From an uncultured archaeon (lineage in GTDB: Archaea; Asgardarchaeota; Lokiarchaeia; Sigyniarchaeales; SOKP01): 30,876 bases of DNA. Both the position numbers and the translations under genes were made by a program. The notes beneath the pieces were generated by a model. That model was not told the DNA's origin. It ran no database searches and was given only the letters and a program-made list of their open reading frames with translations. Where the stretch lies: positions 1 through 30,876 of the forward strand of contig CAYLZE010000060.1 in assembly GCA_964388035.1 (NCBI GenBank). The letters run 5' to 3'. How positions within the stretch are numbered: position 1 is the first letter of the stretch; every line of letters begins with the position of its first letter. Below are positions 16,954 through 25,130 of the stretch, piece after piece.

Positions 16954-17808
16954 ATGCCATACATAAAAAATAAAGATGGTTATAATCTTTACTACGAAGA
17001 TATCAACCCTTTCTCGAAAAACTGCACTATTATTTTAATTCATGGATTTGCATCCTCTGCATCTTTTTTTAAAGAACAAATCAAGGTTTTAAAACAAAAT
17101 TATAGAATCGTTGCATTTGATGCATTAGGACATGGAAGAAGCGACCATCCCGAGAAATTAGACATCTCCTGCAATGTAAGATATGAAATCATAAGGGATG
17201 TCGAAGACCTTATAGAGTTTTTGAATATAAAAGGAGAATTTGGGCTTATAGGGCATTCATTGGTAGGAGGAATGATTGCCCAGCAAATCGCATTAAAACA
17301 TCCCGAGCGGGTAAAATTCTTGATTTTATTGAACTCGGGGTATATCATGATAGATAATGTAATTAGAAACATTTTCTACAATTTATTACCCTACTTTATT
17401 CGCATGAATTTTTTGGAAGTCGTGGCAAATAGCGTGGAAAAGATCTTGGATAAAACCATTCCTTATATTGTTGCCTCTTTGGCAGATTCCCTTGTGGGGA
17501 GTAATTTAACAAAAGAGGAGCTCTACATGAAAATTGAGGACCAGATTTTTCGAATGATCCATGAGATAAAAGAGTATGATCCTTCCGGTATTATATGCCC
17601 CACGCTCATAATAGGAGGAAGATTGGATAATTTCAGTCCTGAAATGATGTCTGAACGCCTTCATGAAATGATATATAATTCTCAATTAGAAATAATAGAT
17701 ATGGCAGGGCATTTTTGTCCCGCTCAACGACCTGATGTGGTTAATGAGATTATTTTGGATTTTTTAACTCAATTCCTCAAAGGTAACAAACTGGCAGCAC
17801 ATTATTAA
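16954..17808 (+). CDS. Alpha/beta fold hydrolase
   Basis: LIHGF oxyanion motif; FDALGHGRS; GHSLVGG nucleophile elbow; PTLIIGGRLD (Asp); AGHF (His). Confidence 0.9.
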   Translation: MPYIKNKDGYNLYYEDINPFSKNCTIILIHGFASSASFFKEQIKVLKQNYRIVAFDALGHGRSDHPEKLDISCNVRYEIIRDVEDLIEFLNIKGEFGLIGHSLVGGMIAQQIALKHPERVKFLILLNSGYIMIDNVIRNIFYNLLPYFIRMNFLEVVANSVEKILDKTIPYIVASLADSLVGSNLTKEELYMKIEDQIFRMIHEIKEYDPSGIICPTLIIGGRLDNFSPEMMSERLHEMIYNSQLEIIDMAGHFCPAQRPDVVNEIILDFLTQFLKGNKLAAHY

Positions 17809-17890: not shown

Positions 17891-18262
17891 ATGATGTCAA
17901 GAATTGAAAATGATGAAATTACTCCTATTTCTTTCTTCAAGCATGAAGTGGAACAGTTTATTGAGCAGAGAGGATGGAAAAAGTATCACACTCCTAAAAA
18001 TTTGATTCAAGCCTTACAGATTGAAGCAGCAGAACTCTCCGAGTTATTTTTATTCAAGGATCTTCCCAAGGAAAAAATCTTGGAAAATAAAGAATTATAT
18101 CAAAACATTTCCCATGAAATAGCAGATATATTTATTTACTTGATTAGTCTCATAAATTCTTTAGATATCGATCTAACGCGTGCCTTTATTAATAAAATGA
18201 AAATAAATGAGATAAAGTATTCTAAAGAAGAATTTAACCAAGGATTATATTACAAGAAGTAG
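17891..18262 (+). CDS. MazG-like nucleotide pyrophosphohydrolase (DCTPP1/RS21-C6 type)
   Basis: RGWKKYHTPKNL, EAAELSE, EIADIFIYL and KMKINEIKY match the all-alpha dCTP pyrophosphatase family. Confidence 0.88.
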   Translation: MMSRIENDEITPISFFKHEVEQFIEQRGWKKYHTPKNLIQALQIEAAELSELFLFKDLPKEKILENKELYQNISHEIADIFIYLISLINSLDIDLTRAFINKMKINEIKYSKEEFNQGLYYKK

Positions 18263-18330: not shown

Positions 18331-19311
18331 ATGATAAATGATAATATTGATGAAAAAATCAAGGCCCAATTCGAGAATACATTGAGCGAGACAAACTTCC
18401 CGAATAAGTTAGGCATTCTCTATAAAGGAAAAGTGAGGGATAATTACACGAGAGATGACATGCGCATCATTATTGCAACAGACCGATTATCGGCGTTTGA
18501 TCGGGTCATTACTACCATACCTTTTAAGGGGGAATTACTCAATAAAGTATCTTCGTTCTGGTTTGAGAAAACGAAGGATATAGTGAAAAATCATTTAATC
18601 TCCGTGCCCGATCCTAATGTTTCTATCACCCATCAATGTGAAACTCTTCCCGTGGAAATGATTGTAAGAGCTTATATTACGGGAACCGCTTGGCGTAATT
18701 ACACGGAAGGTATTCATACTTCTGGAATAGAACTCCTTAAGGGATTGAAAAAGAATGAAAAATTAACCGAAATCGTGCTGACTCCTTCGACAAAAGAGGC
18801 TTCTGGCCATGATATCTATATTTCAAGGGAAAAGATAATTCGAGAAAATATTGTGGAGAAGGATATTTATGAAAAAATGGAACAAGCCTCTTTAAAGCTT
18901 TTTAAATACGGCCAAGCTCACTGTAGCAAAAATGGATTAATCATGGTGGATACCAAATATGAATTCGGATTAAAGGATGGAGAATTAATGGTCATCGATG
19001 AAATACATACTCAAGATTCTTCCCGTTTTTGGATTGCAGATAGTTATGAAGAAGCATTCAATAAAGGAGAAGAACCTGAAATATTAGATAAAGAAATCTT
19101 TAGAGGATGGTTAATGGAAACGTATCCAGATGTTTTCCCAAACATAAAACCAGATCAACCCATACCCCCCATTAAAGATGATATAAAAATAGAATTGGCG
19201 AAGAGATACATGAAAAGTTTCAATAAAATCACGGGATTACCTTTTAAGGCAACACCCATGAACGTGAAAAAAAGAATTGAAGCGAATTTAAAAAAAGCAG
19301 GTTATTTATAG
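18331..19311 (+). CDS. purC: SAICAR synthetase
   Basis: YKGKVRD, TDRLSAFD, IPFKG, PVEMIVR, TPSTK, DTKYEFG, DEIHTQDSSRFW, DKE. Confidence 0.96.
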   Translation: MINDNIDEKIKAQFENTLSETNFPNKLGILYKGKVRDNYTRDDMRIIIATDRLSAFDRVITTIPFKGELLNKVSSFWFEKTKDIVKNHLISVPDPNVSITHQCETLPVEMIVRAYITGTAWRNYTEGIHTSGIELLKGLKKNEKLTEIVLTPSTKEASGHDIYISREKIIRENIVEKDIYEKMEQASLKLFKYGQAHCSKNGLIMVDTKYEFGLKDGELMVIDEIHTQDSSRFWIADSYEEAFNKGEEPEILDKEIFRGWLMETYPDVFPNIKPDQPIPPIKDDIKIELAKRYMKSFNKITGLPFKATPMNVKKRIEANLKKAGYL

Positions 19312-19816: not shown

Positions 19817-20098
19817 ATGGAAGTTAATCAATTTATTGTGGAAATTGTTCTGGAGAATAAAGCTTTAGCTCGTGATCCAACTGGGGAGACGATAAGAAAG
19901 GACCTGTTGGTTAAAAAAGGATATGAAATGGTTACTAACGTAAGATCCGGACAATATCTTCGCATAACTCTTAAAGCAAGAGACCAAGAGGATGCATCAA
20001 AAATTGTAAATGAAATGGCTAATGCTTTAAGAATTTTTAATCCTGTAACTCAAGATTTGAAAATTTTAAAAATATCAAAACAAGATATCCATGATTAA
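19817..20098 (+). CDS. purS: FGAM synthase subunit PurS
   Basis: K..ARDPTGETI, VRSGQ and NPV motifs; directly upstream of purQ-purL. Confidence 0.92.
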   Translation: MEVNQFIVEIVLENKALARDPTGETIRKDLLVKKGYEMVTNVRSGQYLRITLKARDQEDASKIVNEMANALRIFNPVTQDLKILKISKQDIHD

Positions 20099-20103
20099 TA
20101 AAA

Positions 20104-20811
20104 ATGACTATTAAAATAGCGGTCATTCAATTTCCTGGTTCTAATTGTGATTTAGATACAATTCACGTTCTTCAAAATGTAATGAACGTGGAAGCCGATT
20201 TAGTCTGGCATAATAATTTTAAAGGGGCAAATTACGATGGAGTAATCATCCCGGGTGGGTTTTCATTTGGAGATTATTTAAGAGCAGGAATAATTGCTGC
20301 GCACAGCCCTGCTATGGGAGAGGCCAGAATGATGTTGAAAGAAGGAAAACCCGTTCTAGGAATATGTAATGGATTTCAGATTTTAATCGAAGCAGAATTC
20401 CTCCCCGGAGCATTATTACAAAATGAACATCTAAAGTTTATATGCAAGTGGATAAATGTTAAGGTGGAAAATGTTAACACCGCATTCACAAACAAAATGA
20501 AAGCCGGTGAAGTCTTGGATTTACCCATTGCACACGGGGAAGGAAGGTACTTTACTGATCAATTAAAAGAACTACAAGATAATCATCAAATTATTTTAAA
20601 ATACGTGAATAAGGAAGGCGAAATGACTGAAAAAGCAAATCCAAATGGTTCTCTAGAAAATATTGCGGGAATATGTAATTTGGAACGGAATTGCATGGGT
20701 CTCATGCCCCATCCAGAACGTTCAAGCGAGAAAATTCTAAGTCCTTATTCCACGACTCATGGGCGTCTGTTTTTTGAATCAATGATTGAATTCATAAGGA
20801 GGAATTGTTGA
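20104..20811 (+). CDS. purQ: FGAM synthase glutaminase subunit PurQ
   Basis: [43 protein letters not shown]. Confidence 0.97.
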
Positions 20812-23057
20812 AAGTGCCAAGGGTAGAAGTTGATGGAAAAAAAGTAGACGTGGACCTGTATCAGAAGGAGATAGAACAAATTAATACTTCTCTGGGGCGG
20901 GCTCCCAATATGACGGAATTAGGAATGTTTGATGTAATGTGGAGCGAGCATTGTTCTTATAAATCTTCTCGACCGCGGTTGAGATTATTCGAGGATGCGG
21001 AAAAGAATTATAAACATGTTTTGGCTGGGCCAGGTCAAGATGCTGGAGTCATTGATATTGGAGATGGATATTGTATTGCATTTCGTATTGAATCCCATAA
21101 CCATCCTTCCGCAATAGAACCTTATCATGGCGCTGCTACGGGAATCGGAGGAATTATTCGGGATATATTGTGCATGGGGGTGCGTCCCATTGCCTTGCTG
21201 GATCCCCTACGTTTTGGAAAGTTAAAAAATAATCCTCATTCTCAATGGTTATTTAAGTACGTGGTAAAGGGAATCGCGGATTATGGCAATTGTACGGGTA
21301 TTCCGACCATAGGAGGAGAAGTGGAATTTGATGAAAGTTTTGAGAATAATTGTTTGGTAAACGTGGCATGTGTAGGGCTTGGAACGATTGAGGATTTTAA
21401 CCACGCGCCGAGTAAAGCATATAATCCCGGAGATTATGTAGTACTCATGGGCGGATCTACCGGAAGGGATGGAATCCATGGAGTAACCTTTGCCTCAAGG
21501 ACTTTGACTGATATGTCAGAAGCAGATAGACCGGCAGTTCAAATCGGAGATCCCTTTACTAAAAAGATCATTATTGAAGCCACCTTAGAAGCTGTCAAGA
21601 CGGGCTACGTGCGGGGTTTAAAGGATTTAGGCGGAGGTGGTCTCTCATGTGCATTGAGCGAATTGACGGGAAATGGCGGGACTGGAGCTGTTATTGATTT
21701 GGGAAATATATATACTAGGGAACCTGGTATGAATTCCTTTGAAATAATGCTTTCAGAATCTCAAGAACGAATGGCTTTTATTATAAAACCCGACGGATTG
21801 AACGACATTTTGAACATTTTTCAAAAATATGAGGTTGCACATGCGGTGATTGGAAGAATTGATGATAGTAAAGTGTTAAAAATTTTTGATGGAGAAAGAC
21901 TTATAGTAAGCATTCCCGCGGTTGCGCTTTCTGATGCGCCCGTGATTGAAAGAGAAGAAAAAAGACCTGAATTTCTTGATGAATTGCTAAATCAAGCGAC
22001 CCCTCCATTAACTACACCAATTTCAGAAATTGTTCATGAATTAATCGCTTCGGAGAATATTTGCAGTAAAAAATGGGTTTATAGACAGTATGACCACGAG
22101 GTCGGGATCCGTTCGGTTGTTAAATGTGGAGATGGTGATTCCGGAGTATTACGGATAATTGGGACGGATAAATTTATTGCAGTAAGTGTGGGTACTAATT
22201 CAAAGCATTGCTATTTAGATCCCTATGAAGGAGCAAAAGAAAGCGTGGTAGAGAGTTGTGCTAATGTAATTGCCAATGGAGCTCGTCCTTTAGGAATGGT
22301 AAATTGCTGTAATTTTGGCAATCCCGAGATCCCCGAGTCCTATTGGTATTTTTCTCAAGCTGTTAAAGGGATGGCTGATGCGTGTAAATATTTAAGAATT
22401 CCGGTAGTAGGAGGGAACGTTTCCTTATATAATGAAGATGAAGTTACTCATACAGCAATTAAACCTGCTCCGGTGGTCATGATTGTGGGCCTTCTGGAAG
22501 GTGAAAAAAATATCATTACTTTACCTTTTAAAACTCCTGGAAATGATATTTTTCTCATCGGAGAAACTAAAGCCGAATTAGGAGGATCGGTATATCATAC
22601 TGTAATTCATGGAATTACAGGAGGTACACCTCCAAAAATTAAGGAAGAAACTATTAAAAAAAGTTGGGATTATATTTTCGAATTATATATGAAGAGTTTG
22701 GTCCTTGCAAATCATGACGTGAGCAAGGGCGGGCTTCCAATTGCTATAGCCGAGATGTGCTTCAAAAATAAATTAGGTGCTGAGATAACCTTTAATAATG
22801 GAATTTCCGCTTTAAGAGATGATGAATTCCTTTTTAGTGAATCAGCGGGACGCTTCATTATTGAGACTAAACCAGAACATGGGCAAGAAGTAGAAAAAAT
22901 TGCTAAAAAATTTAATATAAAGCTTAAGAGAATCGGTACGGTTCTTTCCGAACCGCATATCATTATAAAAGGGTTAAATGAAAAGAATATAATTTTGGAT
23001 GTATTAAAATTAAAAAACCTTCATGGTTCTACCCTTAAAAATCTCATGGAACTTTAA
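20805..23057 (+). CDS. purL: FGAM synthase subunit PurL
   Basis: WSEHCSYKSS, ESHNHPS, TGRDGIHG, LSESQERM, QYDH, NFGNPE, GGNVSLYN, HDVSKGG, FSES. TTG start overlaps the purQ stop. Confidence 0.97.
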   Translation: MLKVPRVEVDGKKVDVDLYQKEIEQINTSLGRAPNMTELGMFDVMWSEHCSYKSSRPRLRLFEDAEKNYKHVLAGPGQDAGVIDIGDGYCIAFRIESHNHPSAIEPYHGAATGIGGIIRDILCMGVRPIALLDPLRFGKLKNNPHSQWLFKYVVKGIADYGNCTGIPTIGGEVEFDESFENNCLVNVACVGLGTIEDFNHAPSKAYNPGDYVVLMGGSTGRDGIHGVTFASRTLTDMSEADRPAVQIGDPFTKKIIIEATLEAVKTGYVRGLKDLGGGGLSCALSELTGNGGTGAVIDLGNIYTREPGMNSFEIMLSESQERMAFIIKPDGLNDILNIFQKYEVAHAVIGRIDDSKVLKIFDGERLIVSIPAVALSDAPVIEREEKRPEFLDELLNQATPPLTTPISEIVHELIASENICSKKWVYRQYDHEVGIRSVVKCGDGDSGVLRIIGTDKFIAVSVGTNSKHCYLDPYEGAKESVVESCANVIANGARPLGMVNCCNFGNPEIPESYWYFSQAVKGMADACKYLRIPVVGGNVSLYNEDEVTHTAIKPAPVVMIVGLLEGEKNIITLPFKTPGNDIFLIGETKAELGGSVYHTVIHGITGGTPPKIKEETIKKSWDYIFELYMKSLVLANHDVSKGGLPIAIAEMCFKNKLGAEITFNNGISALRDDEFLFSESAGRFIIETKPEHGQEVEKIAKKFNIKLKRIGTVLSEPHIIIKGLNEKNIILDVLKLKNLHGSTLKNLMEL

Positions 23058-23081: not shown

Positions 23082-23088
23082 AAGGAGA
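23082..23088 (+). promoter_or_regulatory. Shine-Dalgarno-like site for the purF-like gene
   Basis: AAGGAGA about 6 nt upstream of ATG 23095. Confidence 0.5.
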
Positions 23089-23094
23089 GTTTAA

Positions 23095-24531
23095 ATGGAA
23101 AAAAGAGAATCGTGTGGAATATTTGGCATCTCTTGTAATGATTTTAGCTATTCCGTGGCAGGCATGATATATAGCGGATTAATGGCCTTGCAACATCGAG
23201 GGCAATTATTTACGGGCATTTCAACCTATAGTAATTGCAAGCTCTTTACATATAAAAATCGAGGAATAGTTGCTAAAGTCCTGAATCCTAATAAATTAAA
23301 AACCTTCAGTGGTAATATCGGGATTGGCCACGTGAATTATGGTACCCGAAGAATCATTTCCGTGGAGGAAGCACAACCTTTTCATTTTAAATCCATGGAA
23401 AATGAATTTACACTGGCATTTAATGGAAGAATAACGAATTCTGATGTTATAAGTGATAAGCTAAAAAATATGGGGCGAATTTTCATGGGGAATAGCGATG
23501 CAGAACTGTTTGCCACCCTGATAGATACTTTCTCTAAATTGTCCGAGAATAATAGCATGATTGAGGCATTCAAAATGATAACAGAGTTCGTGGAAGGTGC
23601 ATATTCATTAATTCTATTAAATAAGGATGGAAATATTCATGTGTTAAGGGACCCTTATGGCTATAAACCATTATGTTATGGTAAACTCGAAGCTGATGGA
23701 AGAATATTCTACATTGTAGCATCTGAATCTTGTGCTTTGGATGTACTTGGTGCAACATTACAAGCGGATGTCATGGCGGGAGAAATGGTAAAAATTAATC
23801 CCATAGATGGAATTGAAAAAACTAAAATAAAAGAATCACGAAGTTTGGGCCCTTGTTTATTTGAATACATTTATTTTGCACGCCCCGACTCCATCTTGGA
23901 TGGTATTTCCGTAGCTAATGTTCGATATCGTCTAGGTAGATGCCTTGCACGGCAAGATAATTTCGATGCATTGGATACAATTGTGGTCCCAGTACCCGAT
24001 TCAGGAAGAAGTGCGGCGATGGGTTATGCTTGGGAATCTCAAGTTCCTTATCAAGAAGGTTTGATCAAAAATCGTTATGTTTGGCAATTAAAAGTTAACG
24101 ATTTAAAAGAAAAACTTAATGTCATAAAAAGCGTGGTAAAGGATAAAAATGTTATCCTTATTGATGATTCCCTCTTGAGCGGAAAAACAATTAAAGAGAT
24201 AATTGCGATGTTAAGAACTGCTCAAGTAAAAGCTGTTCATGTCAGGGTTAGTGCTCCTCCCATTATAAATAACTGTGATAAAAATGATTCCTTTTCTAAC
24301 CGAGACCTCTTAATTGCCTATCAAATGAAACAAAAAGATGAGAAGAACTATGTAGAAGAAATTCGAAAATACATTGGAGCGGATTCTCTCAAATTTCAAA
24401 CCATGGAAGGATTAATTAAATCAATCGGTATAAACAAATCAACGGTTTGTCGAGCTTGTTTTGAAAATAACGTGAAAAATGATGGGAACAAAGAAGAAAC
24501 AAAAGCTAGCATCATGTATCCCCAACTTTGA
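23095..24531 (+). CDS. purF: Amidophosphoribosyltransferase homolog (divergent PurF)
   Basis: ESCGIFG, LQHRGQ, RDPYGYKPL, ASESCAL, CLFEYIYFARPDS, PVPDSG, IDDS, GADSL, CRAC. Several active-site motifs are altered (see findings). Confidence 0.88.
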   Translation: MEKRESCGIFGISCNDFSYSVAGMIYSGLMALQHRGQLFTGISTYSNCKLFTYKNRGIVAKVLNPNKLKTFSGNIGIGHVNYGTRRIISVEEAQPFHFKSMENEFTLAFNGRITNSDVISDKLKNMGRIFMGNSDAELFATLIDTFSKLSENNSMIEAFKMITEFVEGAYSLILLNKDGNIHVLRDPYGYKPLCYGKLEADGRIFYIVASESCALDVLGATLQADVMAGEMVKINPIDGIEKTKIKESRSLGPCLFEYIYFARPDSILDGISVANVRYRLGRCLARQDNFDALDTIVVPVPDSGRSAAMGYAWESQVPYQEGLIKNRYVWQLKVNDLKEKLNVIKSVVKDKNVILIDDSLLSGKTIKEIIAMLRTAQVKAVHVRVSAPPIINNCDKNDSFSNRDLLIAYQMKQKDEKNYVEEIRKYIGADSLKFQTMEGLIKSIGINKSTVCRACFENNVKNDGNKEETKASIMYPQL

Positions 24532-24816
24532 TCCCTCCTCCATTTTTTAAAGAATTACATGAAATATCGATATATTAGAAGCGTTCTACCTATCTTTGGT
24601 CATGAGAATATGCCCCAAATACGAAGGAGCTGATAATTTAAAAAGCAAATTTATTTATTTTTGCATCTCTTATTAATAAATTAGAATTATTTAATTTAAT
24701 CAAGTAATCGATTGAAATATATATTAGGTCATCTTCATAATAAAATGAAGTAAAATTGGGAACTATTAAAAATTTTATTAAGTTAAATTATTTTTAGAAG
24801 AGGATATGAATAAAAA

Positions 24817-25008
24817 ATGAGAGCCCGAGCATGTTTGAAATGCCATGAGTTCGTGTTAGTTCGGCCAAACGATCCCAAGAATCAACTTCTCATAAAAGAG
24901 TTCGAATCTCACCATATGATGCATACTTTGATTACTTTAGATTATGCAGAGATAAAAGACACCTATAAAATGTATGGTGCGGAAACCCAAGAAGAACAAA
25001 CTTCTTGA
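24817..25008 (+). CDS. Small putative Zn-binding protein (CxxC...HxxH)
   Basis: 63 aa with CLKC and HHMMH; purine-rich GAGGA upstream; sits alone in an otherwise very AT-rich gap. Confidence 0.75.
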   Translation: MRARACLKCHEFVLVRPNDPKNQLLIKEFESHHMMHTLITLDYAEIKDTYKMYGAETQEEQTS

Positions 25009-25130
25009 TTTGAAGCAATAAAAAGCTATTTTTATGAGTTCATTGTTTATTATAAATTCGCCCTTGATTTTTCTTTTCATTCTTATTAATTCATGATTGA
25101 ATTAAAAACGGAGTTCTAGAAATCTATTTA

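Follow-up and report, generated by a model that had tools for sequence, protein, structure and literature searches.

A divergent PurF paralog at the end of a Lokiarchaeial pur operon is conserved as a family and may be an accessory, ligand-binding protein

PurF catalyzes the committed step of purine synthesis, which is under feedback control, and it is a textbook case of ammonia channeling. In this study, we analyzed a 30,876-nucleotide (nt) stretch of DNA from an uncultured Lokiarchaeial archaeon (contig CAYLZE010000060.1 of assembly GCA_964388035.1; hereafter, the window), in which a pur operon ends with a gene for a divergent PurF paralog of 478 amino acids (aa), here designated F2 (23095..24531; all window features given below lie on the plus strand). 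Open reading frame (ORF) analysis, Pfam and TIGR01134 searches, alignment with the Bacillus subtilis PurF structure 1ao0, and an AlphaFold2 model all identified F2 as a protein with a class-II N-terminal nucleophile (Ntn) glutaminase domain followed by a type-I phosphoribosyltransferase (PRTase) domain. The reading that we favor, and that we hold with some reserve, is that F2 is an accessory, most likely regulatory, ligand-binding PurF paralog that does not carry out the coupled reaction leading from glutamine to phosphoribosylamine (PRA).

The F2 reading frame is intact from its ATG start to its TGA stop codon, and sequence inspection revealed a GGAG Shine-Dalgarno-like site (23084..23087) 7 nt 5′ of the ATG. 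Pfam searches detected GATase_7/GATase_6 and Pribosyltran, and nothing beyond the glutaminase and PRTase domains. When F2 was compared with TIGR01134, the NCBIfam equivalog model for purF, the match ran end to end and scored 341.8 bits, under the curated cut-off of 350. Among solved structures, 1ao0/1gph of B. subtilis PurF came closest (E 4.6e-81, with residues 7-457 in the alignment), and F2 is 38% identical over its full length to 1ao0. F2 resembles the canonical [4Fe-4S] PurF of the B. subtilis type (EC 2.4.2.14), with which it shares a location in a pur operon and many motifs. These include a 6-residue propeptide followed by Cys7 (codon 23113..23115), which aligned with Cys1 of 1ao0 and is the predicted mature nucleophile; HRGQ; the Asn-Gly pair of the oxyanion hole (FNG, 23419..23427); YFARPDS and Asp127 (in SDAE); the pyrophosphate (PPi) loop VPVPDSGRSAA (23986..24018), which is identical to that of the canonical copy described below; KNRY; and the DDS of the loop that binds 5-phosphoribosyl-1-pyrophosphate (PRPP). 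Four cysteines also occupy the Fe-S ligand positions as assigned by alignment with PurF, namely Cys254 (23854..23856), Cys394, and Cys452 and Cys455 (CRAC, 24448..24459, the third and fourth positions); binding of a cluster is predicted from these positions.

F2 differs from canonical PurF in elements of both active sites, and in being a second copy that falls under the equivalog cut-off. In the glutaminase domain, Leu stands in place of the HRGQ(E/D) acid (HRGQL, 23194..23208; seen in the 1ao0 alignment and in orthologs), and GHVRYAT of the glutamine loop has become GHVNYGT. The remnant HVNYGT (23329..23352) has Asn in place of Arg73 and is 3 residues shorter. In the PRTase domain, KNRY is followed by a flexible loop of 16 rather than 24 aa (24067..24120), with an 8-residue gap relative to 1ao0 at the canonical RTFIxPxQ, such that RTFI...R is deleted. 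The PRPP loop has changed from DDSIVRGTT to DDSLLSGKT (24163..24189), retaining DDS and G.T while its Arg is replaced by Ser. Finally, PCFYGID has become NCDKNDS; within CDKNDSF (24274..24294), the Fe-S cysteine (Cys394) is kept, YxGID is replaced, and a new, near-invariant Asn is present. The roles of the residues concerned are assigned from the E. coli and B. subtilis PurF literature: in the E. coli enzyme, Arg73 binds the glutamine carboxylate, Asp29 (the acid after HRGQ) is required for glutamine-dependent activity, and Lys326, the lysine of KNRY, contributes to the allosteric nucleotide site. Two further candidates were discarded. A basic residue near the lost Arg73 (GTRR in the window) was considered as compensation, but these positions are not conserved in F2; and the His to Phe change of HNG was considered as a defect, but canonical Lokiarchaeial copies also have FNG.

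An earlier note made from the window's letters had described F2 as "not a normal PurF", and its account holds for the most part. The substitutions it listed (HRGQL, GHVNYGT, the loop gap of about 8 aa, DDSLLSGKT, and NCDKNDS) were all seen in the 1ao0 alignment, the features it reported as intact (ORF, Shine-Dalgarno site, propeptide and Cys nucleophile, YFARPDS, and Fe-S ligand positions) are all present, and the departure from the norm is borne out both by the sub-threshold TIGR01134 score and by the sharing of the changes among all orthologs. Its reading of AHNGN to AFNGR as a lesion was mistaken, given that Asn-Gly is kept and that the genome's own canonical PurF also has AFNG.

The motif pattern of F2 is not due to chance, because it recurs in a whole family of proteins. 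Among 40 related genomes, three groups of PurF-like proteins were found: a canonical group matched in nearly all genomes (F1), F2, and a third group (F3). The F2 orthologs from these genomes were 48-71% identical to the window protein, and the window's motif changes were present in 9 of 9. When a collection of 5.8 billion proteins was searched, the top 54 clusters (90% identity) were F2, most of them full-length; where named, the clusters were labeled Lokiarchaeota or Promethearchaeota (in one case Heimdallarchaeota), and all were annotated as "amidophosphoribosyltransferase". Within these clusters, Cys1 was kept in 48 of the 48 that included the N-terminus, Gly2 was retained, and HRGQ was kept in nearly all; the oxyanion pair was kept as Asn in 51/54 and Gly in 53/53, and each of the four Fe-S cysteines in 53-54 of 54. 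KNRY, DD, and SG were each present in 54/54. Other features were lost or altered. The residue after HRGQ was Leu or Ile in 44/54 F2 clusters, whereas it was Glu in 65/65 canonical Lokiarchaeial copies. Position 73 was Cys in 32 clusters and Gly in 7, with others including Asn, Ser, and Ala, and no conserved Arg was found there in the 54 clusters. The glutamine loop was 3 aa shorter throughout, and the flexible loop was shortened by 8-9 aa, to 15-16 aa, in 54/54. The PRPP-loop Arg was replaced by Ser in 54/54, compared with Arg in 65/66 canonical copies. YMGID was replaced, with the Cys kept in 54/54 and the new Asn present in 52/54. Asp127 was kept in only 37/54, and the C-terminal tail was variable. 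An exhaustive HMMER search across 1.84 billion cluster representatives returned one full-length F2 and fragments, then Lokiarchaeial F1, and then ordinary PurFs; among the best 150 representatives, the flexible loop was exactly 24 aa in nearly all, as against 15-16 aa in F2. Separately, several PurF-like representatives unrelated to F2 (P0257, P0177, P0181, P0193, P0225, and P0233) had eroded loops or nucleophiles, one unrelated example having a 14-aa loop and Ser at the Cys1 position; degenerate PurF paralogs have thus arisen independently in other lineages.

A canonical PurF is encoded elsewhere in the window's genome. In the assembly (5.47 Mb in 211 contigs, 96.7% complete, 7.3% contamination), a profile search with TIGR01134 identified a second purF on contig C46, scoring 438.9 bits and thus above the cut-off of 350. 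This F1 protein is 45% identical to F2, and its motifs are intact: HRGQES, NRYATTG, NRYVWRTFIMPGQQKRK, DDSIVRGTT, CYMGIDF, and CLAC, along with AFNG. Its gene adjoins hisF/hisH and lies outside any pur operon. purD was also found in this genome. A contaminant origin of F1 was considered and rejected, since F1 and F2 also occur together in a sister genome (G001), and since the F1 of G000 groups with the F1s of its own family.

The evolutionary constraint on F2 was examined by several means. All 17 genomic F2 copies had open reading frames, of 461-511 aa. Synonymous sites were saturated in most pairs (synonymous divergence, dS, above 1.3 or undefined), leaving only the pair G014-G140 (dS 0.92) with a usable ratio of nonsynonymous to synonymous divergence (dN/dS), which was 0.14 for F2 and 0.09 for PurL. 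In pairwise comparisons, F2 had 1.6-2.9 times the dN of F1 or PurL. When mean pairwise identities were compared in the 11 genomes with both copies, the glutaminase domain reached 50% in F2 versus 77% in F1, and the PRTase domain 59% versus 74%; the most conserved F2 stretch was residues 301-330, which comprise the PPi loop and KNRY (82% mean pairwise identity). Columns conserved at 95% or more numbered 91 in F2 and 170 in F1, and 74 of them were common to both with the same residue. Deletions aside, seven columns were conserved in both groups with differing residues, and among these only Ser362 and Asn397 lie within active-site motifs. Judged by these patterns, F2 is maintained by purifying selection; constraint appears to have dropped at the catalytic elements while the scaffold and ligand loops were maintained, and a newly fixed active site is not obvious. 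The fold itself is predicted to be intact: an AlphaFold2 model built from 89 sequences had a mean predicted local distance difference test (pLDDT) value of 91.2 and a predicted template modeling (TM) score of 0.90, and Foldseek superimposed it on 1ao0/1gph with TM scores of 0.84-0.88. In this model, the two-domain Ntn-glutaminase and PRTase architecture is complete, and pLDDT falls to 78 in the shortened glutamine loop, to 73-85 in the truncated flexible loop, to 80 in CDKNDS, and below 50 in the C-terminal tail. These data leave very little room for F2 as a decaying duplicate or incipient pseudogene: it evolves about twice as fast as F1, has lost many conserved columns, and is patchily distributed, but its frames are intact in 17 genomes of 10 genera, its 54 clusters are mostly full-length, and the dN/dS of about 0.14, the 91 columns conserved at 95% or more, and the strict synteny all speak against decay.

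The origin of F2 was addressed with a maximum-likelihood tree (quick search, LG+C20 model). F2 was monophyletic (100 in the SH-like approximate likelihood ratio test, SH-aLRT) on a long stem of 0.76, and it was nested in the Lokiarchaeial F1 clade (SH-aLRT 96), grouping with its own family's F1 (SH-aLRT 91). The terminal branches of F2 were 2-3 times as long as those of F1. Because of this nested position, F2 is, on the evidence of the tree, a fast-evolving duplicate of Lokiarchaeial purF, a placement to be read with caution on account of long branches. F2 was found in 17 of 135 genomes of one Lokiarchaeial family, spread over 10 of its 13 genera, and it was rare in the two large genera (1/54 and 5/42). 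F1, or contig-end fragments of F1, accompanied F2 in 16 of its 17 genomes, and F1 occurred without F2 in many others. In all 17 carrier genomes, F2 lay directly 3′ of purL, with a gap of 0 to about 40 nt or a slight overlap; the gene order at F2 loci was hydrolase, MazG-like, purC, purS, purQ, purL, and F2, with downstream genes that varied by genome. When three F2-less genomes (G003, G004, and G016) were searched by tblastn, no F2 remnant was found after purL, and non-coding DNA occupied the site; in another F2-less genome (G009), the order was purL-F3-F1. F1 follows purC or purQ in sister families and lies elsewhere in the F2 family itself, which argues that F2 holds the ancestral operon slot of purF. 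In other families of the order (L033, L032, and L034), canonical purF followed purQ-like and purL-like genes that shared only about 30-36% identity with their counterparts in the window; different types of formylglycinamidine ribonucleotide (FGAM) synthase may be in use within the order.

How F2 might act is best considered in the light of what is known of PurF mechanism. In PurF, glutamine is bound by the glutamine loop, and an ammonia channel of about 20 Å forms only once the PRTase flexible loop has closed over PRPP (PMC7056826). Ribose-5-phosphate sits in the PRPP loop and pyrophosphate in the PPi loop, and inhibitory nucleotides bind at sites A and C, which overlap both sub-sites (PMC7056826). 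With both closing loops shortened and Arg73 and the acid lost, F2 would be incapable of the coupled glutamine-to-PRA reaction, and an ammonia-dependent one would be unlikely. With the PPi loop, KNRY, and DDS..SG.T kept, binding of PRPP and/or purine nucleotides has probably been preserved in F2. The protein would be matured like PurF, and it would then serve as an accessory, most likely regulatory, subunit that probably joins canonical PurF in mixed oligomers and adjusts the first pathway step upon expression of the pur operon. We regard F2 as accessory because it co-occurs with F1 and because most of its relatives live without it.

Several observations weigh against this proposal. The strongest is that Cys1 (48/48), Gly2, Asn101, and Gly102 are kept, which is unexpected in a dead subunit; retention of Cys1 and the oxyanion hole points to preserved Ntn chemistry or at the least to self-processing, and it would also fit a new Ntn-type reaction. 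One F2 genome (G140, 95% complete) yielded no canonical purF. Lastly, the negative association between F2 and F3 described below is drawn from genomes that are phylogenetically non-independent, and four genomes carry both. In the literature searched, we found no description of a regulatory PurF subunit of this kind, nor of a variant that, like F2, keeps Cys1 and has lost the loop. As for the options raised by the earlier note, a canonical purF elsewhere in the genome, which it had envisaged, was indeed found, and so was conservation of the substitutions under purifying selection. Its two contrary scenarios, F2 as the only purF or as a decaying copy with canonical orthologs, are at odds with the C46 copy and with the non-canonical orthologs. 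The ammonia-dependent variant is disfavored, since the half-reaction with NH3 depends on the PRTase flexible loop, which F2 has lost. A pseudo-enzyme or regulatory subunit, or a nucleotide or PRPP sensor, would remain the best of the options that had been offered.

A more specific version of the regulatory proposal takes F3 into account. F3 proteins are about 470 aa long and about 30% identical to F2; they start with MGGLFGV, having Gly at the Cys1 position, and are without HRGQ. They keep the flexible loop (RSFMPQDQ..R..KMKL), EDSIVRGTQ, and the Fe-S cysteines (examples are L031:3-1406, plus strand, and L046:4264-5679, minus strand). F3 was absent from the window's genome, but was found in 88 of the 135 family genomes, with 75-90% identity among copies, and usually beside canonical purF. 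F3 was present in 4/17 F2 genomes versus 84/118 others (Fisher p = 2e-4, for genomes that are related to each other), and F2 and F3 were mutually exclusive in three genera. If F2 and F3 substitute for each other, then what they share in common is non-catalytic: the scaffold, the Fe-S cluster, and the ligand loops. On this basis, F2 could be a non-catalytic subunit in mixed tetramers with canonical PurF that resets feedback control of the committed purine step in a subset of Lokiarchaeia, with the Cys-less F3 as an alternative version of the same device; F2 would then supply nucleotide or PRPP sites and an Fe-S cluster, and no chemistry. We consider this model possible, though far from probable.

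A paralog similar to F3 is known from other archaea. Crenarchaeota have a conserved extra PurF-like gene, PurF′, which lies near purF or other pur genes, encodes a protein without the N-terminal Cys, and has been assigned neither a biochemical nor a regulatory function (Brown et al. 2011, PMC3261824). F3 resembles PurF′, in that both lack Cys1 and keep the flexible loop and xDSIVRGT, whereas F2 shows the reverse, with Cys1 kept and the loop lost, and branches from Lokiarchaeial canonical PurF (PMC3261824 for PurF′).

The foremost competitor to a regulatory role is that F2 has been neofunctionalized, with Cys1 still serving as an Ntn nucleophile toward some amide or thioester in place of free glutamine and the PRTase half only binding a 5-phosphoribosyl ligand, as substrate or activator; the reaction would then not be PRA synthesis. 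Such a role would account for the near invariance of Cys1, Gly2, HRGQ, and Asn-Gly, for the change of the charged glutamine-site residues (Arg73 and acid 29) to small or hydrophobic ones, for the newly invariant Ser362 and Asn397, and for the retention of the general type-I PRTase ribose-5-phosphate motif. However, the former glutamine-site positions vary within F2 (position 73, and Asp127 at 37/54), as would be expected from relaxation more than from a newly fixed specificity; the glutaminase domain is the faster-evolving half; and the gene context yields no candidate substrate. We therefore rate a new reaction as conceivable but doubtful.

It is also conceivable, though in our view improbable, that F2 still forms PRA, as an isozyme that is co-expressed with the pur operon and is streamlined, uncoupled, or dependent on ammonia. 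F2 occupies the operon slot held by purF in other lineages, retains Cys1, the oxyanion hole, the PPi loop, and DDS, falls only 8 bits under the TIGR01134 cut-off, and is present in G140, where no canonical copy was detected. Such a function is hard to reconcile with the channel-forming flexible loop (PMC7056826), which has shrunk from 24 to 15-16 aa in every F2 when almost all other PurFs have 24, or with the absence of Arg73 from all F2 proteins; moreover, 16 of the 17 F2 genomes keep F1, and most genomes of the family do without F2.

An association with a different enzyme was also weighed. F2 might partner the FGAM synthetase (PurL/PurQ/PurS) or another enzyme of the pathway, for example by holding a labile phosphoribosyl intermediate or by sensing PRPP or nucleotides; the adjacency to purL in 17 of 17 genomes and the retained ribose-5-phosphate and pyrophosphate loops are compatible with such a partnership. 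The adjacency, however, may be no more than an inherited position, given that purF after purL or purQ is ancestral in many lineages, and we think a partnership of this kind quite improbable.

F2 is preceded in the window by pur genes. F2 is the final gene of a purC-purS-purQ-purL operon that comprises purC (18331..19311; Pfam SAICAR_synt), purS (19817..20098; TIGR00302, 41.8 bits against a cut-off of 39), purQ (20104..20811; Pfam GATase_5), and purL, encoding FGAM synthase II (20805..23057; Pfam AIRS, AIRS_C, and FGAR-AT linker), whose stop codon lies 37 nt before the F2 start. Upstream, Pfam searches identified a MazG-like gene directly 5′ of purC (17891..18262) and an alpha/beta hydrolase gene two genes 5′ of purC (16954..17808); this arrangement 5′ of purC was shared by all family genomes examined, whether or not they carry F2. 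The G+C content of the window is about 33%. Sequence inspection further revealed a T-run 3′ of the F2 stop codon (24532..24550), which probably marks the end of the operon. In the AT-rich spacer 3′ of the operon, there is an ORF of about 63 aa that starts with MRARACLKCHEF (24818-25009). In genome G012 (L040:9420-12242, minus strand), the PurL frame is 941 aa long and no separate purQ ORF was found between purS and purL, which suggests a purQ-purL fusion or read-through.

Non-catalytic paralogs that regulate an active relative have precedents. The "prozyme" of trypanosomatid S-adenosylmethionine decarboxylase is one such paralog. F2 is likewise a duplicate that has lost catalytic elements, has kept the fold, and co-occurs with the active copy (16/17 genomes); it differs from prozyme in that its nucleophile and oxyanion hole are retained and in that its heteromer is putative. 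B. subtilis PurR is a PRTase-fold sensor of PRPP that has no catalytic activity and carries a DNA-binding domain. As in PurR, the type-I PRTase fold of F2 may have been kept for PRPP binding in purine regulation, but F2 has no DNA-binding domain.

The duplication of purF in archaea has posed a question since 2011 (PMC3261824). For annotation, F2 means that metabolic reconstructions of Lokiarchaeia could mistake it for a working enzyme. For the biology of the family, F2, which has shed precisely the two channel-building loops while retaining the nucleophile, the Fe-S ligand positions, and the ligand-binding loops, and which has long been under selection in Asgard archaea, represents a natural experiment on the uses to which the remaining PurF scaffold can be put, be it regulation, sensing, or new chemistry.

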